Virus record (IMG/VR): IMGVR_UViG_2529293223_000013
Strand: one strand, 5' to 3'
Origin: a virus
Lineage: Duplodnaviria > Heunggongvirae > Uroviricota > Caudoviricetes
Length of the DNA stretch: 34,720 nucleotides
Shown piece by piece: positions 6,969-32,662 of this stretch. Numbering within the stretch: the first letter of the stretch is position 1; the number at the start of each line of letters is the position of its first letter. The position numbers were made by a program, and so were the translations under genes. The notes below the pieces were generated by a model, which searched no databases, was not told the DNA's origin, and worked only from the letters and a program-made list of their open reading frames with translations.

Positions 6969-8121
6969 AATAGCTGCGCGGAATAGTAGATCACTTTGAG
7001 GGAACTTAGCCCGGATTGTGCGATCTGATCAATCGCCAAATCAAAACAAATCACCAACCGGACTGAGCAATGCCGATCATAGCACCAATTTCCCGTGACG
7101 AACGACGCCTGATGCAGAAAGCCATCCATAAAACACACGATAAAAATTATGCCCGCAGACTGACTGCCATGCTGATGCTGCACCGGGGCGACCGTGTCAG
7201 CGACGTTGCCAGAACGCTCTGCTGCGCCCGTTCCTCTGTTGGACGCTGGATTAACTGGTTCACGCAGTCGGGTGTTGAGGGACTGAAATCATTACCTGCC
7301 GGGCGTGCCCGTCGCTGGCCGTTTGAGCATATCTGCACACTGTTACGTGAGCTGGTAAAACATTCTCCCGGCGACTTTGGCTACCAGCGTTCACGCTGGA
7401 GTACAGAACTGCTGGCAATAAAAATCAATGAGATAACCGGTTGCCAGTTAAATGCCGGAACCGTTCGCCGCTGGTTGCCGTCTGCGGGGATTGTGTGGCG
7501 AAGGGCTGCGCCAACTCTGCGTATCCGTGACCCGCATAAAGATGAAAAGATGGCAGCAATCCATAAAGCACTGGACGAATGCAGCGCAGAGCATCCGGTC
7601 TTTTATGAAGATGAAGTGGATATCCATCTTCATCCCAAAATCGGTGCGGACTGGCAACTGCGCGGACAGCAAAAACGGGTGGTCACGCCGGGACAGAATG
7701 AAAAATATTATCTGGCCGGAGCGCTGCACAGCGGGACAGGTAAAGTCAGCTATGTGGGCGGCAACAGCAAAAGTTCGGCGCTGTTCATCAGCCTGCTGAA
7801 GCGGCTTAAAGCGACATACCGTCGGGCGAAAACCATCACGCTGATCGTGGACAACTACATTATCCACAAAAGCCGGGAAACACAGAGCTGGCTGAAGGAG
7901 AACCCGAAGTTCAGGGTCATTTATCAGCCGGTTTACTCGCCATGGGTGAATCATGTTGAACGGCTATGGCAGGCACTTCACGACACAATAACGCGTAATC
8001 ATCAGTGCCGCTCAATGTGGCAACTGTTGAAAAAAGTTCGCCATTTTATGGAAACCGTCAGCCCATTCCCCGGAGGCAAACATGGACTGGCAAAAGTGTA
8101 GCGGTATTAAGCGCAGCTATT
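6969..8121 (+). mobile_element. IS630-type insertion sequence (Tc1/mariner-like, IS630 family)
   Basis: Terminal inverted repeats AATAGCTGCGC (6969..6979) and GCGCAGCTATT (8111..8121), continuing as imperfect repeats of about 28 bp. Flanked by a TA dinucleotide on each side (6967..6968 and 8122..8123); removing the element restores CTAG. Length is exactly 1153 bp, which I recall as the IS630 length. Contains one 343-aa transposase ORF. Confidence 0.85.
7070..8101 (+). CDS. IS630-family transposase (DDE)
   Basis: 343-aa ORF inside the inverted repeats with an N-terminal HTH-like region, matching the IS630 transposase as I recall it from Shigella sonnei. Stop codon lies within the right inverted repeat. 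Confidence 0.85.
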   Translation: MPIIAPISRDERRLMQKAIHKTHDKNYARRLTAMLMLHRGDRVSDVARTLCCARSSVGRWINWFTQSGVEGLKSLPAGRARRWPFEHICTLLRELVKHSPGDFGYQRSRWSTELLAIKINEITGCQLNAGTVRRWLPSAGIVWRRAAPTLRIRDPHKDEKMAAIHKALDECSAEHPVFYEDEVDIHLHPKIGADWQLRGQQKRVVTPGQNEKYYLAGALHSGTGKVSYVGGNSKSSALFISLLKRLKATYRRAKTITLIVDNYIIHKSRETQSWLKENPKFRVIYQPVYSPWVNHVERLWQALHDTITRNHQCRSMWQLLKKVRHFMETVSPFPGGKHGLAKV

Positions 8122-8168: not shown

Positions 8169-9587
8169 ATGACATACGCACTGATTGATAATTCAACTCT
8201 AACTGCAGTCCAAAGAATCGAGGGGAAAGTAAAAACAAGATCGAAGGACTCAGTAGATACAGACATAATAGCATTTGAGAACTATATACAGTCTATTTTG
8301 TTCTATGATCACGTTATCGCGGTTGATGATTATATTCCAGAGTACCGTGGGAGTAGGATTTCAAGTTTCAGAGAGATATTATTTCTTGATAAAGCACAAT
8401 ATGGGTTGGATGAAATTGAAAGTGAAGCAAAAAAAATATCTGATGCATTGAAACCTAAAATTCGTGGTGGAACATTTGTTAATGACGATTTTAAAAAACT
8501 AATTGAACTTCTTCAGACACATATCATATGTACATGGGACATTAGTTCAAGTGTTTATCATCTAACACTGAAGAACTTATCTGATGGAGGTAAGGAGTTT
8601 GAAAAATATGGTAACATTGCTGCTGCCATTTTTTCAGAACTGCGTGATGCTGCTGAGTCTGGTAATAGAACAAATGGCGATGTTGAACTTCTCGATCGAT
8701 TTGGCAACCCTATTCGCAAGGGGTACAAAGTTCCCGGAGCAAAATGGGGGGATGGCACATCTGCTGGTGAAGCATCAGATGCAATCAAAGCATTCGTGGC
8801 TTCGCTTGTATGGCTGGCTAATCGGGCAGTATTTTATTCTCTCACAGCTAAGTACCTTCAAGCAGATACTTTTTTATATCCATTACGTCAGGCGTATCAA
8901 CAGACATATTTAAGCCAAAACTGTCAGTATGGTTTTGACTATGCTAAACATATTGTAGAAAACTTTTCCACTTCGTTAAGTCATGATCTCATTGATATTC
9001 ATTCTGGTGGTAAAGCTGTAGCAACAGCAACTTCGCTTCCTTTATTTTCGGCATGGCTCGCAAAAGAAACTGGTGATCCAAGTTGTATTGTTGAAGCTGC
9101 TTATAACATAAGGGACAACAACGAATTTGTAAGGGCCCGTGAGAAAATGCGAGAAATAAAGCGCTTGTTTGATGAAAATGAATTGCCTCAAGCTAATAAG
9201 TCAGTAAGAGCATTGCTTACTGAAGTATCGAAAGAATCAGATTATATTCGAACTAAGTATGGGCTCAAGACTAGACAAGGTGTACCTGTAACTAAGCTTG
9301 TACATGTATACAATACTGTTGCGGCTATTAATTCCCTTCCGAAACTACCGACCTTTAATTTTAAAGTTAAAGTTCCTGATTTCTTATATGATCTTAAAAA
9401 ACCCAAGGGGTTTCGTGCTCTCTATCGAAATTTGACTAATGATCTTTCTACTGTGTGGTCGTTAGGAGAAGCTCGAGATATTCTTGGAAGTAAAGTTGTG
9501 ATAGATAATCATGCAAGAATTTACAGTCCGAAGCATGAAGAACCGCGTTTCAAAAACTCTCATTCCCCATATAAGAGCCCGATGTAG
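8169..9587 (+). CDS. Uncharacterised 472-aa cargo protein in the FI-G (Z/fun-equivalent) hotspot; function unknown
   Basis: Uninterrupted 472-codon ORF with a Shine-Dalgarno-like AAGGA 7-8 nt upstream of the ATG. Hand counts on two 60-nt stretches give roughly 30-38% G+C against about 53% in a sampled structural-gene stretch. Opposite strand to the flanking late genes. I do not recognise the sequence or any canonical motif. Confidence 0.6.
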   Translation: MTYALIDNSTLTAVQRIEGKVKTRSKDSVDTDIIAFENYIQSILFYDHVIAVDDYIPEYRGSRISSFREILFLDKAQYGLDEIESEAKKISDALKPKIRGGTFVNDDFKKLIELLQTHIICTWDISSSVYHLTLKNLSDGGKEFEKYGNIAAAIFSELRDAAESGNRTNGDVELLDRFGNPIRKGYKVPGAKWGDGTSAGEASDAIKAFVASLVWLANRAVFYSLTAKYLQADTFLYPLRQAYQQTYLSQNCQYGFDYAKHIVENFSTSLSHDLIDIHSGGKAVATATSLPLFSAWLAKETGDPSCIVEAAYNIRDNNEFVRAREKMREIKRLFDENELPQANKSVRALLTEVSKESDYIRTKYGLKTRQGVPVTKLVHVYNTVAAINSLPKLPTFNFKVKVPDFLYDLKKPKGFRALYRNLTNDLSTVWSLGEARDILGSKVVIDNHARIYSPKHEEPRFKNSHSPYKSPM

Positions 9588-10232: not shown

Positions 10233-11173
10233 TTATACCTGCGCCACGTTATACCAAGTCCCGTTAATGTATTTCTGCACCGGTCTGTAATATACGCCAC
10301 CAATGTTATCGGCAGAGTTTGAGCCGGTATCCTGAACAATAATGCCGGAATATACACACCCGGACGGTGCCTGATGTGTCCATGTCATACCATTGTTCGC
10401 AGGTTTGTATGTGGCAGCACCACCAAGCCGGATATCCCGGACATAGCGTGAATCAAAGTTGCCATAGTTAGATGGTGATACCTGCCCGTTAACAGCAAAA
10501 GTGATGCTGTTATCTGTATTTCTCTGACTGTAAAAATGCCAGCCTGCATCATCACCTAATTCAGCCACCACAGGACGACTTGAGTTTCCCCACAAATTGA
10601 ATGCGGCTTCCTTCGTGGATGTATTGCTGCTGCTGACCGTGAACTTTTTCCCGCTACCGGCACGTACTTTGGTACTTGAGACAATATCACCTGTAACACT
10701 CAGGCCATGCCCCATTGACACTCCGCCATTGGCGTTATTGATAGTCAGCGGTCTTAAGCCGTTCCATGTCCCAAATTTATCGCCAGAGGCCGTCAGCATT
10801 AAATATGTGCTGCCGCCATCATTCCTGATAAAGAATCCATAATTGCCATAAGCAATGCGCAGACCATTAGCACTGAGTGATGTAATTTCACCTCTTGAAC
10901 GGAGACCATAAGCGGAGCTGAGTGATAATTCTTCCTGAGCGTCATTGTTTCCTGTCGCCCAGCGAATTACCCCGCCCTGAACTGTTTCATGCCAGATAGT
11001 ATCTCCTTCTCCACCACGAAACTTTCTGAGATATTTTTTGCCGCCTCTGGTGCCTGAACATAAGGCCGTAGACATATAGGCATTCTGGCTTCCGCCATCC
11101 TGATTAATCGTTCCGGTCATTGAGTCGCCCTGACGATTCCAGTCACGACGCCAGCCGGGGGAGTAGCCGTCCC
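10233..11173 (-). pseudogene. H: Tail fibre protein H, C-terminal portion (gene interrupted by an IS element)
   Basis: Open frame continues from the IS boundary down to the stop at 10233 (ORF track 10233..11120). Gly/Ser/Asn-rich receptor-binding-like sequence. In frame with the N-terminal fragment once the 1304 bp of IS plus duplication is removed. Confidence 0.8.
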
Positions 11174-12467
11174 CTGAGGGATCCCCAGAAAATTTAGTAA
11201 ACCATTATCATATTGGTATACCGTTGCTGTAGAACTTTCAGCCCTGCGTCAAGTGACAGTGTGTTTAGTATGAGTGGAGAATGTCGAATCACATTCTCCG
11301 CCAGTTTTAATAACGAGATGACTCGCCTGTGCTTCACTGTATTTGCCTGATATTTATGATGTATCCCTTTGTTTTCCAGGCTGAAACCGCTTAACCACAT
11401 AATGATACTGGCTAATGTTGCGATCAGACTCAATACCGTGACCCGCCCGGATGAATGACTGGCACCAAACCGTAGTCCAAATCCCCAGCGAGGATTTTTT
11501 TCATCCCTGAAATTTTGCTCAATTTGCATTCTACGGCTGTATAATTTCATTACCTGTTTTGGCGAGAACTCAGTACTGTTTGTGAAAATAAACCATGGTG
11601 ATTTCCCGGCAGTACGAGCTTTAGCCGTCACCGATGGTCTGGTTGCTCTTTCCTTCGAGCGTTTAAATCTACGACCTTTAGGCTTACTTTTATAAAGATA
11701 AAAATGCCCTTCATGTTGTGCATTTTTATCTCGACCCAGCAGGCCTTCACCTAAATAAATTGCTGTCGTTGATGCTTTTGTGCCTGAGTCCGACACCTTT
11801 TCCCAGCCATTACCAACATTGTAATAATGATTGCCCAGTACCCGGCAAATATAGGTCCAGCCACGGGAGCGGAGCTGTTGGAACCATCGCCCCTGAAAAC
11901 CGGCATCTGTAATAACAATGACATCAGTCCCGGGGGAAAAGCACTCAGCAAGCGATTCCAGAAAACGCTCATGTACATCTGCATTCGCTGTCTGTGATGA
12001 TGGAACGACACAACTCATCAACGGTAAAGAACGCCCGTCACATGCCAGGCTTGCCCGCAAAAGCTGAAAACGAGAGGCATGATAAGCACTCCAGTCAATG
12101 AGTATCACAACACGAGACATTCCCCGCGTAATCTTTTGGGTAATTCGCTGAAAAATGGTGGAAACCTCATTTTGCAAATGTCGATTCCCCAACAGTCGAT
12201 CCACCCGCTTTATTTTGTTTTTAACTGATGCCGTACCGGTTAAATGACGCCCGATACTGGTAAGTGTGAGGGAAGCGCCATTTATTACAGCATTAGTTGC
12301 GTCAATCAGTGATTTTTGACGGTAAAGATGCAAAGGGGCCAGTATGTTGTTAAGGAAATTTTGGCATAATGAACGTGCAGGCATAGTGGTGATCTCCTTG
12401 AAATTGTTAGCACAATCAATTAGATCACATCTCACTATGCCTGTCTTGTTTTCTGGGGATTCCTCAG
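11174..12467 (-). mobile_element. IS4-family (IS10-like) insertion sequence inside tail fibre gene H
   Basis: Terminal inverted repeats CTGAGGGATCCCCAGAAAA (11174..) and TTTTCTGGGGATTCCTCAG (..12467) with one mismatch. Flanked by direct repeats of the target (tagccgtccc at 11164..11173 and 12468..12477, i.e. a 9-10 bp duplication). Encodes a transposase with IS10-like motifs. Element ends are uncertain by 1 bp. Confidence 0.85.
11194..12384 (-). CDS. IS4-family DDE transposase (IS10-like)
   Basis: ORF 11194..12480 (-) with IKRVDRLLGNRHL and YSRRMQIEQNFRDEKNPRWGFGLRF motifs, close to IS10 transposase IKRIDRLLGNRHL and YSKRMQIEETFRDLK. The track ORF starts outside the IS end, so the true start is internal; I place it at the first in-element Met (12382..12384), giving about 396 aa. 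Start codon is uncertain. Confidence 0.75.
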   Translation of the reverse strand: MPARSLCQNFLNNILAPLHLYRQKSLIDATNAVINGASLTLTSIGRHLTGTASVKNKIKRVDRLLGNRHLQNEVSTIFQRITQKITRGMSRVVILIDWSAYHASRFQLLRASLACDGRSLPLMSCVVPSSQTANADVHERFLESLAECFSPGTDVIVITDAGFQGRWFQQLRSRGWTYICRVLGNHYYNVGNGWEKVSDSGTKASTTAIYLGEGLLGRDKNAQHEGHFYLYKSKPKGRRFKRSKERATRPSVTAKARTAGKSPWFIFTNSTEFSPKQVMKLYSRRMQIEQNFRDEKNPRWGFGLRFGASHSSGRVTVLSLIATLASIIMWLSGFSLENKGIHHKYQANTVKHRRVISLLKLAENVIRHSPLILNTLSLDAGLKVLQQRYTNMIMVY

Positions 12468-13855
12468 TAGCCGTCCCCATGATTTATGTAAGTGAATTGC
12501 GCGCTGGTTGTACCGCCACCGCTTGATGTTGTTGGCGTGGTCACTCGGATAGTGATTGCAGATTTAGTTCCCATGACCTCGACGACACAACCAGCCAGGT
12601 GGATATCACCACATCCGGTATCCGTAATGATTTTGTTATTTGCATATGACCAGGAGCCTTTGCACATCCAGTACGGATGATTAAATGCACCACGGGAATC
12701 CAGCCATTCAATAAACTGAGCGGTTGTCCAGTTTCCGGCTTCAGTGCTCAAAGCGCCGCTATAAGCACGACAGGCACCGATATTTTTCGTGAAGGTATCC
12801 TTTCCCGGAATATCCGCACCGTTCTGATCTTTCTGAAGACGTTTTTCAGCATTGTCATAGGCAGACTTCACTGCTTTTGGCGTTGCGGCCAGCGTTTCAG
12901 AATCGCTGTTGATGGCACTACTTAGCTGGACAAGACCTTTTCGCGCTGTGGTGGCATCCTGTGCAGTGTATTTCCCGTTAGCAAGGTCATACGCTGTCTT
13001 AACCGCCTTTGGTGTTGCCGCAAGCGTTTCAGAATCGCTGTTGGTGGCGCTACTGAGCTGGACAAGACCTTTTCGCGCTGTAGTGGCGTCCTGTGCAGTG
13101 TATTTCCCGTTAGCAAGGTCATACGCTGTCTTAACCGCCTTTGGCGTTGCCGCAAGCGTTTCAGACGTGCTGTTGGTGGCACTACTGAGCTGGACAAGAC
13201 CTTTTCGCGCTGTGGTAGCGTCCTGTGCGGTATATTTCCCGTTAGCAAGGTCATAGGCGGCCTTTACCGCTTTCGGCGTTGCGGCCAGTGTTTCAGACGT
13301 GCTGTTGGTCGCACTGCTTAACTGAGTAAAACCTTTTGCGGTCAGCGAGGCGTCCGGGTGACGTCGTGACTGTTCGTGCTCTGCAATTTTGTCATCAACG
13401 TAATCCTGTGTCGCCATCACCGTTGTGGTGTCAATGGTCAGCTCCACCGAGGCCACACTGCTGACGATGATGACCATGCGACAGGTCTGCGAACGCCCTG
13501 AGCCTTCGGCAAGAGCTGGCTTATAACTTTCGGCCATGTTCGCCACGGCAATTAACGTTCCCGCATCATCGTACAGGCCAAGCTCACGCATCCAGAAACC
13601 GCCCACCTCCGGCGGAATAACCAGCTCTGCGATAATATAATTACTGTTTCGTTTGTCCTGGCTGATTTTGTTCAGCGTATGTCGCCAGACTTCGTGGATA
13701 AGCCCGGTCTGTCCGGCATCCGGGACAGGCAATTTACCACCGCCATCCCCGACGGCCATCGTGGTAATGTTGACCTTCCGCCCTCCCGGTGCGGTTGCCG
13801 CTGCCAGCTTTGCTGCACCGGCAGTGGTGATAACGGTTCTGAATTTTGTGCTCAT
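12468..13855 (-). pseudogene. H: Tail fibre protein H, N-terminal portion (gene interrupted by an IS element)
   Basis: N-terminus MSTKFRTVITTAGAAKLAAATAPGGRKVNITTMAVGDGGGKLPVP... is the conserved P2-type H N-terminal domain, followed by four copies of a 44-aa repeat. The track ORF reads on into the IS until a chance stop at 12464. Confidence 0.85.
12860..13340. repeat. About 3.6 tandem copies of a 132-bp coding repeat within tail fibre gene H
   Basis: The CGTTTCAG landmark recurs at 12900, 13032, 13164 and 13296 (period 132 bp) with near-identical units. Encodes repeated KGLVQLSSATNSTSETLAATPKAVKTAYDLANGKYTAQDATTAR. Generates mirror ORFs on both strands in the ORF track. Confidence 0.9.
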
Positions 13856-22721: not shown

Positions 22722-24494
22722 ATGACCATCACCACAGACACCACTCTTTTACACGACCCGCGTCGTCAGGCGGCGCTGCTGTACTGGCAGGGGTTTTCCG
22801 TGCCGCAGATTGCCGCCATGTTGCAGATGAAACGCCCGACGGTGCAGAGCTGGAAACAGCGCGACGGCTGGGACAGCGTTGCCCCCATCAGCCGTGTCGA
22901 AATGAGTCTGGAAGCGCGGCTGACCCAGCTCATCATCAAACCGCAGAAAACCGGCGGTGACTTCAAGGAAATTGACCTGCTGGGACGCCAGATTGAACGA
23001 CTGGCACGGGTCAACCGCTACAGCCAGACCGGCAACGAGGCAGACCTTAATCCGAACGTCGCTAACCGCAACAAAGGCGGGCGGCGCAAACCGAAAAAGA
23101 ATTTTTTCAGTGACGAGGCCATCGAAAAGCTGGAGCAGATTTTCTTTGAGCAGTCTTTCGACTATCAGTTGCACTGGTATCGTGCCGGGCTTGAGCACCG
23201 CATCCGCGATATCCTGAAATCCCGCCAGATTGGCGCGACGTTTTATTTTTCCCGCGAGGCGCTGCTGCGCGCCCTGAAAACCGGCCATAACCAGATTTTT
23301 CTGTCGGCCAGTAAAACGCAGGCGTATGTGTTCCGCGAATACATCATCGCCTTTGCCCGGCTGGTTGACGTTGACCTGACCGGTGACCCGATTGTCCTGG
23401 GCAATAACGGCGCAAAACTGATTTTTCTCGGCACCAACTCCAACACCACACAGAGCCATAACGGCGACCTGTACGTCGATGAGATTTTCTGGATCCCGAA
23501 TTTTCAGGTACTGCGTAAGGTGGCATCAGGTATGGCCTCACAGAGTCACCTGCGCTCGACCTATTTCTCCACCCCGTCCACGCTGGCGCACGACGCCTAC
23601 CCGTTCTGGTCAGGTGAACTGTTCAACCGGGGACGCGCCAGCGCCGCCGAACGCGTGGAAATCGACGTCAGTCATAACGCCCTTGCCGGAGGTCTTCTCT
23701 GTGCGGACGGCCAGTGGCGGCAGATTGTCACCATTGAGGACGCCCTGAAAGGCGGCTGCACATTGTTCGACATTGAGCAGCTCAAACGCGAAAACAGCGC
23801 CGACGATTTTAAAAACCTGTTCATGTGTGAATTTGTTGACGACAAGGCATCGGTGTTCCCGTTCGAGGAGCTGCAACGCTGCATGGTCGACACGCTGGAA
23901 GAATGGGAAGACTATGCACCGTTTGCCGCCAATCCGTTCGGCTCCCGCCCGGTATGGATTGGTTACGACCCGTCACACCGTGGCGACAGCGCCGGATGCG
24001 TGGTGCTGGCACCGCCGGTGGTGGCCGGTGGCAAATTCAGAATACTTGAGCGTCACCAGTGGAAAGGCATGGACTTTGCCACCCAGGCGGAATCCATCCG
24101 CAAACTCACCGAAAAATACAACGTCGAATACATCGGTATTGATGCCACCGGCCTCGGTGTCGGCGTGTTCCAGCTCGTACGCTCGTTCTATCCCGCCGCG
24201 CGCGATATCCGCTACACACCGGAAATGAAAACCGCAATGGTGCTCAAGGCAAAAGACGTTATCCGTCGTGGCTGTCTGGAATATGACGTCAGCGCCACCG
24301 ACATCACCAGCTCGTTTATGGCTATCCGCAAGACCATGACCAGCAGCGGACGCAGCGCCACCTATGAGGCCAGCCGCAGCGAGGAAGCCAGCCATGCCGA
24401 CCTCGCCTGGGCGACCATGCACGCCCTGTTAAATGAGCCACTCACCGCCGGTATCAGCACCCCGCTGACATCCACCATTCTGGAGTTTTACTGA
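22722..24494 (+). CDS. P: Terminase large (ATPase) subunit (P2 gpP)
   Basis: From MTITTDTTLLHDPRRQAALLYWQGFSVPQIAAMLQMKRPTVQSW... the ORF is 590 aa, matching P2 gpP. Divergent from O as in P2. Confidence 0.9.
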   Translation: MTITTDTTLLHDPRRQAALLYWQGFSVPQIAAMLQMKRPTVQSWKQRDGWDSVAPISRVEMSLEARLTQLIIKPQKTGGDFKEIDLLGRQIERLARVNRYSQTGNEADLNPNVANRNKGGRRKPKKNFFSDEAIEKLEQIFFEQSFDYQLHWYRAGLEHRIRDILKSRQIGATFYFSREALLRALKTGHNQIFLSASKTQAYVFREYIIAFARLVDVDLTGDPIVLGNNGAKLIFLGTNSNTTQSHNGDLYVDEIFWIPNFQVLRKVASGMASQSHLRSTYFSTPSTLAHDAYPFWSGELFNRGRASAAERVEIDVSHNALAGGLLCADGQWRQIVTIEDALKGGCTLFDIEQLKRENSADDFKNLFMCEFVDDKASVFPFEELQRCMVDTLEEWEDYAPFAANPFGSRPVWIGYDPSHRGDSAGCVVLAPPVVAGGKFRILERHQWKGMDFATQAESIRKLTEKYNVEYIGIDATGLGVGVFQLVRSFYPAARDIRYTPEMKTAMVLKAKDVIRRGCLEYDVSATDITSSFMAIRKTMTSSGRSATYEASRSEEASHADLAWATMHALLNEPLTAGISTPLTSTILEFY

Positions 24495-25528
24495 TGAGAA
24501 AGAAAAAAGGGAAAACACCGCAGCCAGCGGTGAAAACAATCACCGCCAGCGCCCCGAAAATGGAGGCATTCACCTTTGGCGAGCCGGTGCCGGTACTCGA
24601 CCGCCGTGACATTCTGGATTATGTCGAGTGCATCAGTAACGGCAGATGGTATGAGCCACCGGTCAGCTTTACCGGTCTGGCAAAAAGCCTGCGTGCTGCC
24701 GTGCATCACAGCTCACCGATTTACGTCAAACGCAATATTCTGGCTTCAACGTTTATTCCGCACCCGTGGCTTTCCCAGCAGGATTTCAGCCGCTTTGTGC
24801 TGGATTTTCTGGTGTTCGGTAATGCGTTTCTGGAAAAGCGCTACAGCACCACCGGTAAGGTCATCAGACTGGAAACCTCACCGGCAAAATATACCCGCCG
24901 TGGCGTGGAGGAGGATGTTTACTGGTGGGTGCCGTCCTTCAACGAGCCGACAGCCTTCGCGCCCGGCTCCGTGTTTCACCTGCTGGAGCCGGATATTAAT
25001 CAGGAGTTGTACGGCCTGCCGGAATATCTCAGCGCCCTTAATTCTGCCTGGCTGAATGAGTCGGCCACGCTGTTCCGCCGAAAGTATTACGAAAATGGCG
25101 CTCATGCCGGATACATCATGTACGTCACCGATGCCGTGCAGGATCGCAACGATATCGAAATGCTTCGCGAAAACATGGTTAAGTCGAAAGGCCGCAACAA
25201 CTTTAAAAATCTGTTTCTCTATGCCCCGCAGGGGAAAGCTGACGGCATTAAAATTATCCCGCTCAGTGAAGTGGCAACGAAGGACGATTTTTTTAATATC
25301 AAAAAAGCCAGCGCCGCTGACCTGCTGGACGCGCACCGTATCCCCTTTCAGTTGATGGGCGGCAAGCCGGAGAACGTCGGGTCACTGGGAGATATTGAGA
25401 AAGTGGCAAAGGTCTTTGTCCGCAATGAGCTTATCCCGTTACAGGACAGGATCCGCGAGATAAACGGCTGGCTCGGTCAGGAGGTCATCCGCTTTAAAAA
25501 CTACTCACTGGACACTGACAACGGCTGA
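24494..25528 (+). CDS. Q: Portal protein (P2 gpQ)
   Basis: 344-aa ORF, P2 gpQ size, last gene before cos. Confidence 0.9.
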   Translation: MRKKKGKTPQPAVKTITASAPKMEAFTFGEPVPVLDRRDILDYVECISNGRWYEPPVSFTGLAKSLRAAVHHSSPIYVKRNILASTFIPHPWLSQQDFSRFVLDFLVFGNAFLEKRYSTTGKVIRLETSPAKYTRRGVEEDVYWWVPSFNEPTAFAPGSVFHLLEPDINQELYGLPEYLSALNSAWLNESATLFRRKYYENGAHAGYIMYVTDAVQDRNDIEMLRENMVKSKGRNNFKNLFLYAPQGKADGIKIIPLSEVATKDDFFNIKKASAADLLDAHRIPFQLMGGKPENVGSLGDIEKVAKVFVRNELIPLQDRIREINGWLGQEVIRFKNYSLDTDNG

Positions 25529-25531
25529 ACA

Positions 25532-25556
25532 TCGCCGCCTGCGGGCGGCTTTTTTA
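25532..25556 (+). terminator. Rho-independent terminator after Q
   Basis: GC-rich hairpin GCCGCC-TGCG-GGCGGC followed by TTTTTT directly after the Q stop codon. Confidence 0.7.
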
Positions 25557-25607: not shown

Positions 25608-25626
25608 GTGCTTTCCCCGCCTCGCC
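25608..25626. other. P2-type cos site (19-nt cohesive end sequence)
   Basis: gtgctttccccgcctcgcc is the reverse complement of GGCGAGGCGGGGAAAGCAC, which I recall as the P2 cohesive end. It sits between Q and the old-equivalent locus as expected for a P2 prophage. Confidence 0.75.
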
Positions 25627-25912
25627 CGCCCGCTTAATGGGGCGGTTTTAATGCACTTGCATGAATGGCCTAAAGTACGCCAGTTCTGACACTGCAAAGT
25701 TAGAAAATGCCTAACAGGTACATGCAAAATGATGCATCAAATGAATTCATACTGAAATAACCCCCAACCACATAGCTAAGCATCCACATCTTTACATATA
25801 ACTCACTAAATTCTCTTGAATAAATCAAAAAGTTAGGTTAGATCTCTATCGTTGAGGAAGGCAACCTCGAACACTTAAGGCTAAATATAAAAAGAATAAA
25901 AAGAGGGATAAA

Positions 25913-28118
25913 ATGAAATTAAAACTCAAAAACGTAACAAGCTATCATAAAGAATATTTTACTGAGTTAGATTTATCCAAAAAAATAAACATATTGTATG
26001 GACAAAATGGTTGTGGAAAATCTACCATATCAAATTATTTTTACAATCCTAAAGACACCGCCTATAAGGAATGTGTATGCGAACCCATCGATAATTATCG
26101 AACCCTAGTCTACAACTCAAAATATATAGAAGATAATTTTTATAATGCAAAAGAGCAAAAAGGTATATTTACCCTCAGTCAAAAAAATGCAGAAATTGAA
26201 AAAATACTATCTGAAAAAGAAGAGCTAAACAAATCACTAGCACATCAGCATAAAGAAAAAAAGAATTTATCGAAAAACTCCATGAAGCGAAAAACAAAAA
26301 AGAGCAAGAATGCATAAATTCCATATGGAATAAGACCAAAGACATAAGAAGTTCAGAATTAAAACAATTAATGAAAGGTCAAATAGGAAGCAAAGCCACT
26401 TTCTATTACCATCTAAAAAAGTATACTCCACAAACTGATATTGATATAAAATCATTAATACAATCTTATAGCAAACTTCTCGAGTTTAAAGGAAAAGAAA
26501 TACCTCTGATAACTCCTTATAAAGGATATGTTTTATCTGAAGAAACTCAAAAAACATTATCCACACCAATTATTGACTCTAGCAACAGCTATTTATCTGA
26601 AGCAATAAAAGAGCTACAAAATATTGATTGGATTAAACAAGGCAAAGAGCTATATTTAAATGGAGAAATTTGTCCATTTTGCCAAAGGGACACAATAGAT
26701 GATAATTTTATTAAAGCCATTGAATCTATCTTTGATGAAACATACTCAAGAAAAGTAGATCAAATACAACAAATAAAACTATCTTATGATAATGCCATTA
26801 AAAATCATCATGAAGAAATAAAGAGTAACATTTTATCATGTGAGGTGATAAACCAAGACGAAAAAGATAAAAGTCTTTCATATGTTAAGGCATTAGAAAC
26901 TATTGCAGAAAAAACATTAAACTATTGGATAATAAAATAGAGAATCCATCTATAAGCATTGTGCTGGAGTTTGAAAAGTCGATAGAGGAAAAACTATTAG
27001 AAGATATAGAACAATACAACAATAAAATTAACGAGTTCAATGACAAAGTAAAAAGATTTAATAATAGCGAAATAGATATTCGCGAAAAGATGTGGGCAGC
27101 AATCAGAGACTTATGTGGCGCGGAATTTGAAATACTATCAGACTGCGAAAGAAACTTTCAAGAAAAATATGAAAACGCTGCATCCTTCATGCAGGAAATA
27201 AAAAGAAAAGAAGAGATCAACACAAATGAAATCAATGAACTAAGAAATAAAACATCAAGTGTAGATGCAACAATAGATGCAATAAACTCACGACTTAAAT
27301 TTCTTGGCATCTCTGGTTTTAGCATTGATAAACACGCCGAACTCAAAGATAAGTATATAATATCCCGCGATGGAAACAATAGAAAACAAGATGTATATCG
27401 CTCATTAAGCGAAGGTGAAAAAACATTAATAACGTTTCTATATTTTTTAGAATGTTGCAAGGGTAAAACAAATGAAAATGATACTGATATGCGTGATAAA
27501 CTCATAGTCATAGATGATCCTATATCAAGTTTATCTCAAAACTATGTTTTCGACATAGCATCCATGATCCATCATGACATAATTGAAAAAGGCATTTCAT
27601 CAAAAATAATAATCCTCACCCATAATCTTTATTTCTTCCATGAGTTAATAAAACTCGCCTCTAAAAAAGGAATAAATTTTAAACGTGACTACTTTCTTGG
27701 CAGAATAAACAAAAATGAATTTAGCACCATTAGTGCTATAGATAAAAAAAGTGTGCAAAATGAATACCAATCCCTTTGGCAAGTATTAAAAGATGCAAAA
27801 GAGAAAAAAATCAACAAAATAATAATCCCCAATATTATGAGAAATATACTTGAGTATTACTTTGCATTTGTTCATAGAACTGACGCATTAGAGGCAAAGC
27901 TTACTGAATTAACAAATGATGAAAATAACAGCCATTTCCGTGCCTTTTACAGATATATAAACAGAGGCTCTCACTCCGACGCAATAAACATAACAGATAT
28001 GGGCGATATTGAACCTGAGAAATACTTAGAACTCTTGCACAAAATATTCAGAATGACTGGTGATGAGAAACATTACTTAACAATGATGGGTGAAGAAGAG
28101 GTAAATGTTACCGCTTAG
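25913..28118 (+). pseudogene. PrrC/RloC-like ABC-type ATPase with CxxC motif and C-terminal putative anticodon-nuclease domain; reading frame broken by two frameshifts
   Basis: Three consecutive ORFs (25913..26317, 26371..26940, 26925..28118) in frames 2, 1 and 0 form one gene of about 735 codons. It carries Walker A (GQNGCGKST), a coiled-coil region with CPFC, an ABC-signature-like LSEGEKTL, Walker B (LIVIDDPISS), an H-loop-like ILTHN, and a C-terminal R-x3-E...H arrangement (RNILE...H). A hand count on one 60-nt stretch gives about 22% G+C. RBS AGAGGG precedes the ATG. Frame changes fall in overlaps that contain A7 (26256..26262) and A6 (26909..26914) tracts. Confidence 0.6.
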
Positions 28119-28345: not shown

Positions 28346-30634
28346 TTACTTAAAAAGATCAAAGCCACTAAAAAACTGCTTCCACTCACCACTTATTGGA
28401 TATATAAACTTTCGTCCGTCAAACTTTACCGTCGCGCCACGCGCCAGCGCCTCAAGCTCCCATCGCTGCGGCCTGATACCGTTCTGAGCGAGGTCAACGC
28501 GGATACGGGTAATTTGCATTCGTTCCGACCTAGTCAGTCTGGCCGATGGCGCTATCTCATGCGGTTTTAACGGGCTTCCGTTTCTTTGCTGACGATTTGG
28601 CGTTCTCAGGTCGTGTTTTAATGCGCCCCTTAGCGCCCTCACGACCTCCGGGTCATTCCATTCGATAACACCGTCATCTACCAGATTAAGCACTGCTGCG
28701 GCGTGTTCAGAAGGCGTGGGAGCCAGTAACGAAGTATCACTGCTGGCAGGCTTTCCACAGTTATTGACAGGACTCCGAGGCGCGGCGATGCCGCTTTTTA
28801 AAGTCAAAGGCTCAACGACCGGAACTTTCGGCACAATGCGCCAGTCCGTCGTTCTGGTGATATGAATATGACGCGCGCCGAGATGCGGCGCGTAAATGCC
28901 GACCACTCTCTCGACTTCTTCCTCGTACTCGTTAACGTCATCCGACGGGCTACGGGCGACCCTGACAGTCTGACAATCGCGCGGGACATTTGCCCCGCCC
29001 TGCGCGCTGATATACAACGCAAAATCACCACTGTCTGCAGCGGCGCGTGCAGCCTCGACGCGCTCGTCAAACTCATCAGCAATGCTGACGCCGCGAGGCA
29101 ATTTGCGTAGTTCACGGTAAGCCCCCATTGTCGGCAGACCAACCGTTTTAAATTGCGGAATGCGCCACGTTGACGCCCATGCGGTAACAGCCGCAGCAGT
29201 ATCTTTCAGCGGCCTGCCGGTATCGTTATCGAGCTGACCATCCAGTGCATAGCCGTCGATGTTTTTTGAGATGTATTTCGCGATATACCCCGCAGCACCG
29301 CCCCGATTAAGGTGTTTTGCCTGAAAACGGTTTCGCGCGGCTCCTCTTTCGTCGCCATCCTCTTTGAGCGCATAGCGACGCATGATTTCGATAATCTGGT
29401 TACGCTGGCGCGGATTACAAAAAAGCATCATATGCCAGTGCGGCGTTCCGTCGTGGTGTGGCTCGACGACACGCAAACCGTAGACCTGTAAATCATTATC
29501 CTTGAATGCCGTGCGCATCAGGCTCCAGATATGGCAGAGATAACGCTGCGCATCCTTTGGATTAAATGCCTCATCGTTCCAGCCGTGATTTAGCTGGACA
29601 GTTTTACTTTCGCCTTTTCCGACCTGACGTGTCGGGTGATACTTTGACGGCGCGGTCAGCGTGATAAACATCCCCACATCACCCTCTGCTGCGGCGTAAC
29701 GCTCAATACCGGCAATGGTGTTCATCAGCTCCATCCGGCGAATTTCAGGATTAGAAATACTGCCCATCACCTTACTGATAAGGTCGATGCGCTCGCCGGT
29801 TTCCCTGTTTTCAAGGTCACACGATTTAAGAAATTCCAGATTTGCCTGGCGGCGCGCACGCACATCACGAATGGCATGTTTACTGGCATAAGGAGAACGG
29901 TCTTTATTGACCTCCCCGACAGCAATCAGTAACGCCTCATGCCAGCGCATACGCTGGCCTTTAAGCTGATGAATCCACCACTCATCGTTAAACAGGCGGG
30001 CAATGGCAGAATATGCCTGCCTCGTGGTCATCTGTCCTTTACGGTATTCTTTCCAGTAGAGCGGGGAAATATTGAAAGCACGTGCAGCGCCAGCAACATG
30101 ACCATACAGGTGAGCCTGCGCCTCATCCGTAAACAGCGATTCTTTTTCGCCATGGGCATCCACCCAGGCATCGCAGAGTTCCTCATACATCATGAAAAGC
30201 TGCGATGAGATACGGGCGGCAAATTTTTTCAGCTCCTTGTCATTCATTCCCGGCAGGCGCGCATAGTGGTCACGCTCTGCCAGAAACAGTAACGACGCGT
30301 CGGTGTTCATTTCATGGCGCTGATTCACGCGCTCAATGCGCGGCCATAAACGACGCTGAAAAGTGGATGTGAGGAAATAAAACCCGTGCACCGGGCTTTT
30401 ATTGCGCCGGATGTAGTCATAGCGTGAAGTAAACAGCGAGCGCAAAAAGTAAGGCAGGCGGTTAATCGTGGATAAAACACCTTGCACCTGACGCATCTCG
30501 TCACGTGTAAGGGGTCTTTCGCGCCCGACAGCCTCGCGTGGCGCGTTCCATGCATAAGCACCGGTAAACGCCTTACCGGTGCCTGCGGCAAATGCTGACG
30601 GAGGGACAAAACGCCCGGAGGCTTTAACGGCCAT
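28346..30634 (-). CDS. A: Replication initiation protein (P2 gpA, rolling-circle nickase)
   Basis: ORF 28346..30676 (776 aa). From the internal Met (MAVKASGRFVPPSAFAAGTG...) it is about 762 aa, close to P2 gpA at 761. Start codon choice is uncertain. Confidence 0.85.
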   Translation of the reverse strand: MAVKASGRFVPPSAFAAGTGKAFTGAYAWNAPREAVGRERPLTRDEMRQVQGVLSTINRLPYFLRSLFTSRYDYIRRNKSPVHGFYFLTSTFQRRLWPRIERVNQRHEMNTDASLLFLAERDHYARLPGMNDKELKKFAARISSQLFMMYEELCDAWVDAHGEKESLFTDEAQAHLYGHVAGAARAFNISPLYWKEYRKGQMTTRQAYSAIARLFNDEWWIHQLKGQRMRWHEALLIAVGEVNKDRSPYASKHAIRDVRARRQANLEFLKSCDLENRETGERIDLISKVMGSISNPEIRRMELMNTIAGIERYAAAEGDVGMFITLTAPSKYHPTRQVGKGESKTVQLNHGWNDEAFNPKDAQRYLCHIWSLMRTAFKDNDLQVYGLRVVEPHHDGTPHWHMMLFCNPRQRNQIIEIMRRYALKEDGDERGAARNRFQAKHLNRGGAAGYIAKYISKNIDGYALDGQLDNDTGRPLKDTAAAVTAWASTWRIPQFKTVGLPTMGAYRELRKLPRGVSIADEFDERVEAARAAADSGDFALYISAQGGANVPRDCQTVRVARSPSDDVNEYEEEVERVVGIYAPHLGARHIHITRTTDWRIVPKVPVVEPLTLKSGIAAPRSPVNNCGKPASSDTSLLAPTPSEHAAAVLNLVDDGVIEWNDPEVVRALRGALKHDLRTPNRQQRNGSPLKPHEIAPSARLTRSERMQITRIRVDLAQNGIRPQRWELEALARGATVKFDGRKFIYPISGEWKQFFSGFDLFK

Positions 30635-30899
30635 ATGAGCCAAAAGCCTCTGAACAACGCTTGCTGAGTTGCTCAACCTGCGCGTTTAAATCAGCAAAAG
30701 ACTTTGCGCTTCCGGTCAGAATATCGTGATGCATCAGGCCGGAAACGAGCTGGCTTAATTTCGGGTAATAACCAACCACCGCCAGCCATTCCTGACCGGC
30801 GTTTTTACCGCTTTCCGCTCTCTTTTTCTCGTGGAGAATAAACTGAAAGCTGTCACTGGTAACGACATAACGTTCGCCAATTTCGATACGAATACTCAT
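30624..30899 (-). CDS. Hypothetical early protein (P2 orf83 position)
   Basis: 91-aa ORF between the TraR-like gene and A, at the position of the small early-operon orfs of P2. No function assigned. Confidence 0.55.
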   Translation of the reverse strand: MSIRIEIGERYVVTSDSFQFILHEKKRAESGKNAGQEWLAVVGYYPKLSQLVSGLMHHDILTGSAKSFADLNAQVEQLSKRCSEAFGSYGR

Positions 30900-32210: not shown

Positions 32211-32386
32211 TTCCATACCCTCCGGCTTTTCAGAAAGGTCAGAACCTTTTTTAACGGACTCTGTTTTTTGGTGCGGATAATGATTCCCTTACGCCCTTAC
32301 CGTGGGTGATGTTGAAGTCAATCGCCCTGGGGCTTTCGTTACGCAATAACTGAGCAATACAACGAGGCTCATTCATACGGTTCTCC

Positions 32387-32662
32387 TTAACGTGGTTCAC
32401 CAAGACCTAACCACATCAACCAGCCGTCACGAATCTCTTTAGGGCGGCTTTCATAAGCCAGTTTTAGTCCGTTATTCCATGCCGGAAGATATACCCAATA
32501 TTCACCTGCACGACCTGAAGCTGATTGTGGATCGGTCATATCAATTACAGGCAGCTTTCCTTTATCGATCATCCGACGAACCGCTCCTGTCGATTTTCCT
32601 ATTAGTTTTGCGAACTCCTGATAAGGAATCGCATCAGTCATGAGTGTTACTTGCTTGCTCAT
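32387..32662 (-). CDS. cox: Cox (excisionase / repressor of Pc)
   Basis: 91-aa ORF MSKQVTLMTDAIPYQEFAKLIGKSTGAVRRMIDKGKLPVID..., the P2 Cox size with an HTH, divergent from C. Confidence 0.85.
   Translation of the reverse strand: MSKQVTLMTDAIPYQEFAKLIGKSTGAVRRMIDKGKLPVIDMTDPQSASGRAGEYWVYLPAWNNGLKLAYESRPKEIRDGWLMWLGLGEPR

Follow-up and report, generated by a model that had tools for sequence, protein, structure and literature searches.

What is encoded between the cos site and replication gene A of the P2-like prophage studied here, one gene or several, and an ATPase or a tRNA-cleaving enzyme? The window, i.e., the whole 34,720-nt stretch of DNA that was analysed (IMG/VR record IMGVR_UViG_2529293223_000013), contains the exact P2 19-nt cohesive-end (cos) sequence at 25608..25626 on the minus strand, which marks the cos-proximal hotspot holding the gene in question (25913..28118, plus strand). 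The portal gene Q (24494-25528) lies on one side and gpA, the replication gene A (28346-30676), on the other, and the remainder of the window follows the P2 gene order, except for IS elements and one unknown ORF. With a GC content of 30% as opposed to 55% in the flanking P2 genes, the gene is as AT-rich as the original prediction had described it, and that prediction also placed it correctly in the old/tin slot next to cos and without a restriction-modification partner, as its neighbours are cos/portal Q and gpA and no restriction-modification genes were found in its flanks. A single AAA_13 gene between cos/Q and A corresponds to the cargo known from this hotspot as “AAA_13, RloC-like”. The P2 cos-proximal locus has been validated as a reservoir of anti-phage systems. 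With 420 occurrences, “AAA_13, RloC-like” ranks fifth in frequency among the P2-hotspot systems (Rousset et al., 2022), and the sequence given in that table aligns by eye with the protein described here. We consider it very probable, at roughly 85%, that the region represents one gene, carried as cargo by a defective P2-like prophage, and that this gene belongs to the RloC family, is a pseudogene as sequenced and encodes, in its intact form, a predicted tRNase.

As sequenced, the region comprises three ORFs in three different frames, all on the plus strand. The first (25913..26317, 134 aa) contains the N-terminal ABC ATPase lobe with the Walker A motif and corresponds to positions 8-131 of the Pfam model AAA_13, its residues past codon 117 being out of frame. 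The second (26371..26940, 189 aa; AAA_13 positions 213-323) contains the first half of a helical insert with the motif CPFC, and the third (26925..28118, 397 aa as listed, with a TTG start that is a mechanical call; AAA_13 positions 344-712) contains the other half of the insert, followed by the ABC signature, Walker B and the His switch, and then a C-terminal nuclease-type domain. In the profile search, the three fragments therefore match successive segments of one model of 713 positions. An alignment with a 99.9% identical E. coli locus revealed only two 1-nt deletions and one synonymous substitution at 27509. Both deletions lie in poly-A runs on the plus strand: the first at 26256..26262, where an A7 run replaces the A8 of intact orthologues (gene nt 344-351), and the second at 26909..26914, where A6 replaces A7 (gene nt 998-1004). 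Restoring one A in each run yields an ORF of 735 aa whose product is identical to WP_028132552.1, which agrees with the single gene of about 735 codons originally read across the frameshifts. The same intact form, one ORF of 2208 nt, was found in 11 of the 13 near-identical copies examined from complete E. coli genomes, and the family includes at least 150 representatives that are single proteins, 689-787 aa long, which the profile matches essentially end to end. It could be argued that we are dealing with three independent genes, such as one for a small ATPase and others for its partners, as three ORFs are what the sequence contains and gene callers annotate each of them apart. However, because intact 735-aa orthologues exist, this reading is refuted, and the coverage of successive parts of one Pfam model and the location of the breaks within poly-A runs also speak against it. 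Programmed frameshifting was likewise rejected, as the A8 run is not conserved in a 58% identical orthologue and most copies are intact single ORFs. The three ORFs are thus best annotated as one frameshifted RloC-family pseudogene. A Shine-Dalgarno-like GAGGG, read directly from the sequence, is located at 25903..25907 on the plus strand, 5 nt upstream of the ATG at 25913; a promoter scan of the 286 bp upstream of the gene gave no convincing sigma-70 site, with overall matches at chance level.

The repaired protein displays a complete set of ABC ATPase motifs, all on the plus strand and all where the original prediction had located them. The Walker A motif or P-loop GQNGCGKST (aa 30-38, 26000..26026) has invariant G30, N32, G35, K36 and T38, the ABC signature LSEGE (aa 499-503, 27405..27419) is invariant, the Walker B and D-loop segment LIVIDDPISS (aa 531-540, 27501..27530) has invariant I534, D535, D536, P537, S539 and S540, and the His switch THN (aa 570-572, 27618..27626) has an invariant H571. 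Between Walker A and the ABC signature lies a largely helical insert (aa 93-464, 26189..27302, plus strand), as judged by the secondary structure of the AF2 model, in which long helices at 93-141 and 403-447 flank it. The insert carries CPFC, a CXXC motif of the zinc-hook type (aa 254-257, 26671..26682, plus strand), of which both C254 and C257 occur in all 57 sequences compared. Across these 57 homologues, which extend down to about 19-20% identity, all ABC motifs, CPFC and the pattern R-x3-E-x39-SH are invariant or at least 90% conserved. The AF2 model has a pLDDT of 81.7, and its best PDB matches in Foldseek are Rad50, SMC, LmuB, AriA and PtuA, with Rad50 providing the top matches of the full-length model. 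PDB sequence searches with the single protein, a full-length profile and a C-terminal profile returned only P-loop and coiled-coil matches for the ATPase. In the model, the insert is not a simple long hairpin, as several short helices surround CPFC, and a Rad50-style hook behaviour is therefore a proposal made by analogy.

Whether the protein is more than an ATPase depends on its C-terminal domain (aa 585-735, 27663..28115, plus strand), which the PrrC model and the domain alignment assign to the HEPN-like anticodon-nuclease type of PrrC and RloC. The PADLOC PrrC model matches aa 434-716 at model positions 87-340 of 372 (E 5.7e-16), which at the level of sequence shows relatedness to PrrC, not PrrC membership. 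In the domain alignment, N641, R644, E648, S687 and H688 are invariant. R644-N-I-L-E648 (27840..27854, plus strand) provides the Arg-x3-Glu of a catalytic-type triad, with R and E in 56 of 57 sequences, and S687-H688 (27969..27974, plus strand; SH in 55 of 57 sequences) its Ser-His, 39 residues past E648. The triad pattern proposed originally is therefore retained, but not its spacing, as the His was expected about 30 residues after the Glu and the nearer candidate, H675, is not conserved. Distant homologues have Asp in place of R685 of the segment RGSH. PrrC and RloC have been described as atypical HEPN domains (Anantharaman 2013), and the contiguous HEPN active-site motif Rx4-6H is not present here, with R644 and H688 being 44 residues apart. 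The HEPN fold support for the domain is modest, the three PDB sequence searches mentioned above gave no match for it, and no solved structure of PrrC or RloC was found. Together with the Rad50 and SMC heads as best structural matches, this modest fold support and the missing PDB sequence match would also suit a DNA-transaction ATPase of the Rad50/SbcC/SMC kind, lacking RNase activity and serving prophage DNA metabolism near cos instead of cutting tRNA. We regard this as highly improbable: Rad50 and SbcC lack such a C-terminal domain, which is precisely what the PrrC model matches, the five invariant residues fall into the published catalytic pattern, and no partner gene of the Mre11/SbcD type is adjacent to the gene.

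The C-terminal RNase-type domain, combined with the split ATPase, leads to the question of whether the protein belongs to RloC or to PrrC. Conceptual repair of the frameshifts followed by profile searches, as proposed along with the original prediction, gave a PrrC model match and a full-length match to AAA_13 (PF13166; E 6e-104, 349.5 bits with the cutoff at 36, covering positions 9-712 of the 713 in the model). According to Davidov and Kaufmann, RloC is defined by a size range, the ABC motifs, a helical insert with CXXC and the pattern R-X3-E-X36-52-(S)H (Davidov and Kaufmann, 2008), and the repaired protein shows every one of these sequence features, with 735 aa, the ABC motifs, the CXXC insert and the triad. 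A functional member additionally has an ORF for the whole protein, which the two -1 frameshifts abolish here. The window gene is thus a member of RloC by descent and not a working copy as sequenced. Profiles, motifs, fold matches and the published definition support the placement in the PrrC/RloC group made in the original prediction, and also its preference for the stand-alone RloC type over PrrC, in view of the 735 aa, the 370-aa insert and the lack of a restriction-modification neighbour.

Database labels for the family vary. The repaired protein matches PADLOC PDC-S06 end to end (E 2.3e-254, aa 2-728 at model positions 4-724 of 727), a bioinformatic candidate label that adds no mechanism, as PADLOC explicitly designates its PDC systems as untested candidates. 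NCBIfam holds no model specific to the repaired protein, PHROGs offers only “unknown function”, and RefSeq names WP_028132552.1 simply “AAA family ATPase”. JGI applies the name “wobble nucleotide-excising tRNase” to homologues, and one in Streptococcus phage Javan105 is called “translation-disabling ACNase RloC”. Clustered at 50% identity, the family numbers about 4000 representatives. The phage collection gave no match at near identity, and the search at the protein level gave nine phage records, among them a copy in Enterobacter phage ENT4 with 60% identity.

The closest described relative is the RloC of E. coli APEC O1 (YP_852004 / WP_000423308.1, “APECO1_4465”), a P2-prophage-borne protein of 738 aa from the same slot between portal gene Q and replication gene A. 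Over its full length it is 58% identical to the window protein and shares its architecture and all motifs; at 70% DNA identity it represents a different allele or clade, and, in contrast to the frameshifted window copy, it is intact. YP_852004 is listed as an RloC orthologue in entry 51 of Table S1 of Davidov and Kaufmann, where its neighbours are recorded as “Phage replication initiation, Capsid” (Davidov and Kaufmann, 2008), and “E. coli APECO1 RloC” serves as an RloC exemplar in Figure 8 of Klaiman 2012. It is probably also the protein that Anantharaman 2013 presented as the prophage-associated ABC-HEPN prototype; its locus, its organism and the gi order suggest that APECO1_4465 corresponds to WP_000423308.1, and the APECO1_4465 entry is absent from the supplement of the HEPN paper. 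The RloC assignment is therefore already known for the syntenic P2-prophage gene, and our reading is not new, because the APEC O1 protein appears in the RloC table of 2008 and the P2-hotspot system in Rousset et al. (2022). Beyond a correct annotation it matters little, as the literature has treated this gene as RloC since 2008.

GkaRloC from Geobacillus kaustophilus, the characterised prototype, shares with the window protein the ABC ATPase split by a helical insert with CXXC and the stand-alone situation without a linked restriction-modification system; the window protein is shorter. Compared by published residue numbers, its triad R692/E696/H737 corresponds to R644/E648/H688, with a Glu-to-His spacing of 40 as opposed to 39. 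GkaRloC was sought among the distant matches by its residues K44, C291, R692, E696 and H737, and none of these matches fitted. The E. coli PrrC (EcoPrrC) has an ATPase C-lobe and a nuclease domain homologous to those of the window protein and the same triad pattern. However, PrrC proteins measure 341-416 aa and have no coiled-coil/zinc-hook insert, and they always occur within a type Ic hsd locus that silences PrrC, in contrast to the 735-aa window protein with its 370-aa insert and no restriction-modification neighbour. In Rad50, SbcC and SMC the head is split by a helical protrusion as well, and Rad50 also has a CXXC hook, but these proteins depend on a separate nuclease partner (Mre11/SbcD), and their protrusion is much longer than the insert described here, which is partly globular in the model. 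P2 itself carries Old (with Tin) in the slot between A and Q. Old consists of one polypeptide, in which an ABC-type ATPase is fused to a nuclease, and is active in phage exclusion. It is listed among the ABC ATPase defences; its nuclease part is of the Toprim DNase/RNase type and a CXXC insert is lacking, while the window protein combines such an insert with a PrrC/RloC HEPN-type domain. No old-like sequence is present in the window.

Due to the two -1 frameshifts in poly-A runs, the window copy is unable to make a full-length enzyme as sequenced; only a stub of the ATPase N-lobe and out-of-context fragments could be translated from it. The two lesions differ in credibility. The first (A8 to A7) is probably a real, circulating null allele: the A7 allele occurs in about ten independent assemblies on at least three SNP haplotypes and in one of the 13 copies in complete genomes, where it is annotated as a frameshifted pseudogene. 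The second (A7 to A6) was limited to SRR058487 and a single error-ridden assembly (L010), and may be real or a 454 homopolymer sequencing error. A third homopolymer deletion relative to a related prophage, C4 to C3 at 32293, breaks a small orf78-like CDS. All three homopolymer indels are thus deletions and no homopolymer insertions were seen, a 454-type error signature, and the true gene might therefore have suffered less damage than the sequence suggests. Taken further, both frameshifts would be under-calls of an early pyrosequencing assembly and the gene would be intact, as both are single-base deletions within long A runs, the double-frameshift allele is confined to the assembly of the early run SRR058487 (product of the third ORF, EGI94080.1), and L010 shares A7 to A6 alongside other homopolymer losses. 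We consider this unlikely, although not negligible, since A8 to A7 recurs on the identical SNP haplotype in two assemblies from different projects (GCA_902502105.1 and SRR19023139) and also on other haplotypes, including that of the complete genome. Twelve other runs of at least seven identical bases in the window have not visibly broken the surrounding ORFs, and the decay of this prophage is under way, as its tail-fibre gene and second hotspot carry IS insertions. Other copies of the RloC-family gene are disrupted by IS5 and IS1.

For the intact protein, a mechanism can be proposed from homology to the Geobacillus and Acinetobacter RloC. A Rad50-like ABC ATPase head with a helical protrusion and CXXC zinc hook would hold the RNase domain with R644, E648 and S687-H688 silent until DNA ends or damage, together with ATP hydrolysis, switched it on; the RNase would then cut tRNA anticodon loops, halt translation and thereby abort the cycle of the infecting phage. 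The biochemistry of RloC comes from the G. kaustophilus and A. baylyi proteins. The RloC nuclease is controlled by the zinc hook and the DNA-dependent ATPase, and mutagenesis of the triad has been published (Davidov and Kaufmann, 2008); excision of the wobble nucleotide, the zinc response and DNA-dependent activation have been demonstrated only for GkaRloC, of which the hook mutant C291G is hyperactive, and A. baylyi RloC is activated in vivo by a double-strand-break inducer. As this activation takes place even without restriction-modification and tRNA loss is partial and temporary, a true RloC-type tRNase could have its main role elsewhere than in phage exclusion, as a DNA-damage-triggered translation brake or in an addiction-type function of benefit to prophage or host. 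We found no report of phage resistance conferred by the P2-borne gene, which is outside the set tested by Rousset et al., and the recurring null alleles and IS disruptions are what a costly gene would be expected to show. A main role of this kind nevertheless appears rather unlikely to us in view of the anti-phage character of the locus, a 35% identical paralogue that adjoins AbiE in tRNA-Phe islands, and the related PrrC, a proven anti-T4 system. The intact allele WP_028132552.1 offers a convenient native E. coli RloC for questions of phage exclusion and of the trigger of RloC-type tRNases.

The recurrence of null alleles suggests that the gene is costly to carry. Since A7 lies on several haplotypes and in a complete genome, and IS1 and IS5 knock-outs also occur, the A8 run could conceivably serve as a contingency locus that repeatedly, and perhaps reversibly, switches off a suicide nuclease whose carriage is costly, an idea that we hold to be quite improbable. 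The gene would fall silent when strand slippage removed one A, and a low level of expression would return through slippage during transcription or, rarely, through regain of the lost A.

The gene under study (25913-28118, plus strand) occupies the cos-proximal accessory slot of P2, which holds old and tin in P2 itself and has been published as a hotspot for anti-phage cargo. It lies between the portal gene Q (24494-25528) upstream and the replication gene A (28346-30676), which is encoded downstream on the opposite strand, and the 19-nt P2 cohesive-end (cos) sequence occurs without mismatch 286 bp upstream of it on the minus strand (25608-25626). A strong terminator-like hairpin is located just past the portal gene (25534-25549). 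The GC content of the gene is 30% as opposed to about 55% in the surrounding P2-type genes. As sequenced, it consists of three ORFs on the plus strand (25913-26317, 26371-26940 and 26925-28118), each in a frame different from the other two.

The three ORFs match consecutive segments of the Pfam family AAA_13 (8-131, 213-323 and 344-712 of 713 positions). At the 99.9% identical locus of E. coli STW0522-31, a single 2208-nt CDS encodes WP_028132552.1, which carries the database label "AAA family ATPase". Compared with this CDS, the window differs by one synonymous change and two shortened poly-A runs, A8 to A7 (~26255) and A7 to A6 (~26908), and the addition of one A to each run yields a 735-aa product that is completely identical to WP_028132552.1. 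Since the repaired product equals a protein encoded elsewhere by an intact single CDS, it is confirmed that 25913-28118 is one gene carrying two frameshifts, as the original prediction had assumed in reading across them. As sequenced, the window copy does not allow the enzyme to be produced; it is either a pseudogene or, at best, a gene that was poorly sequenced.

The match of the repaired protein to AAA_13 runs from end to end (E 6e-104). The protein also matches PDC-S06 (E 2e-254), a family from the PDC systems of PADLOC, which are explicitly bioinformatic candidates, and its residues 434-716 match the PADLOC PrrC model (E 6e-16). Two alignments, with 20 and 57 homologues and identities down to 19%, show full or at least 90% conservation of the residues of the following motifs: the Walker A motif (G30, N32, G35, K36, T38), the CXXC motif (C254-P-F-C257-Q), the ABC signature-type motif (L499-S-E-G-E503), I534-D-D-P-x-S-S540, H571, and N641, R644, E648, S687 and H688 of the nuclease domain. 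When the nuclease domain is aligned alone, exactly N, R, E, S and H are invariant. By the published signature, RloC proteins are 658-897 aa long and have ABC motifs, a helical insert that contains CXXC, and the pattern Arg-X3-Glu-X36-52-His in which a Ser precedes the His; judged by its sequence, the repaired protein carries this signature. The spacing from Glu to the conserved His is 39, whereas the original prediction had pointed to a non-conserved His about 30 residues after the Glu. Apart from this spacing, its observation and interpretation essentially hold: the profile matches and the full RloC motif set support membership of the PrrC/RloC family, and the lack of a restriction-modification partner, which it had also noted, fits the RloC rather than the PrrC type. 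In the AlphaFold model (pLDDT 81.7), the ABC head is broken by helices over residues 93-464, and the best PDB matches are Rad50, followed by SMC heads, LmuB, AriA and PtuA. The RloC-like family is large and uniform, with about 4000 representatives (50% identity) at E ≤ 1e-30 to the profile, the best 150 of which are 689-787 aa long and match the profile essentially end to end.

The RloC assignment of the P2-prophage gene is not new. Orthologue 51 in Table S1 of the RloC-defining paper is YP_852004 (738 aa) from Escherichia coli APEC O1, with the flanking genes "Phage replication initiation, Capsid", and "E. coli APECO1 RloC" was used in Figure 8 of the 2012 follow-up paper. This gene is located between portal and gpA, as in the window, and its product is 58% identical to the repaired protein over the whole length. 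An ABC-HEPN group occurring in prophages, with APECO1_4465 as the prototype, was described by Anantharaman et al. (2013). "AAA_13", annotated "RloC-like", is the P2-hotspot system #5 of Rousset et al. (2022) with 420 occurrences, and is absent from the systems tested by these authors. For homologues, the JGI annotation reads "wobble nucleotide-excising tRNase" and that in Streptococcus phage Javan105 "translation-disabling ACNase RloC". The window gene has thus been catalogued: both its family and its locus are known.

Complete E. coli genomes contain 13 near-identical copies, of which 11 are intact; one of the others also shows A8 to A7 and bears the annotation of a frameshifted pseudogene, and one has been disrupted by IS5 along with a deletion (L004). 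The A7 allele gives rise to a 134-aa product of its own, which 19 contigs from many projects encode. Among the fetched loci, L003 and L006-L013 carry this allele in independent assemblies and on at least three SNP haplotypes, that of L006 and L007 being identical to the haplotype of the window. Because of this recurrence in many assemblies and haplotypes, including that of the window, the first frameshift is very probably a genuine null allele in circulation. The second was found only in two assemblies: that of SRR058487, an exact match to the window, and one with many other homopolymer losses. It may be genuine or a pyrosequencing under-call. The single-base homopolymer indels between the window and a related prophage are three in number and all deletions, which is in line with such an error; the third, C4 to C3 at 32293, frameshifts a small orf78-like CDS (~32251-32403, minus strand) between cox and the B-like gene. 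However, the prophage is clearly in decay, with gene H split and an IS630-type element in the second hotspot, which would fit a genuine loss. A further copy of the RloC-like gene is interrupted by IS1 (L014). Together, the recurrent A7 allele and the IS5 and IS1 knock-outs suggest repeated inactivation of a costly gene, and there is a modest possibility that the A8 run serves as its recurrent off-switch.

We infer the mechanism of the intact protein from the characterised RloC proteins of G. kaustophilus and A. baylyi. The G. kaustophilus enzyme excises the wobble nucleotide, and mutation of any triad residue abolishes its anticodon-nuclease activity and toxicity. Its nuclease is turned on by its own ATPase with DNA, especially linear DNA, while zinc-hook mutations uncouple and activate it; in A. 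baylyi, native RloC is activated by inducers of double-strand breaks. On grounds of homology, the intact P2-borne protein would act as a single-gene, self-regulated suicide tRNase that blocks translation once triggered. A 35% identical paralogue of 731 aa with all motifs kept is found in tRNA-Phe genomic islands of E. coli (L019, 4522-6717; L020, 4426-6621), immediately beside an AbiE system (AbiEii/DUF6088). This neighbour and the hotspot location favour a defence role of the P2-borne RloC.

The tail-fibre gene H (10233-13855, minus strand) is split by an insertion sequence into an N-terminal (12464-13855) and a C-terminal part (Gp34_trimer, 10233-11120), with a DDE_Tnp_1 transposase inside it (11194-12480); this renders the prophage defective. 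The second P2 accessory hotspot (the Z/fun position) lies between FI and G; there, an IS630-type transposase with DDE_3 and HTH domains (7070-8101, plus strand) adjoins a 472-aa ORF (8169-9587, plus strand) with a GC content of 36-40%. Pfam and PADLOC searches with this ORF gave no match, and it matches PHROG 13435 ("unknown function") over its full length; it is an uncharacterised cargo gene and possibly a candidate for defence.
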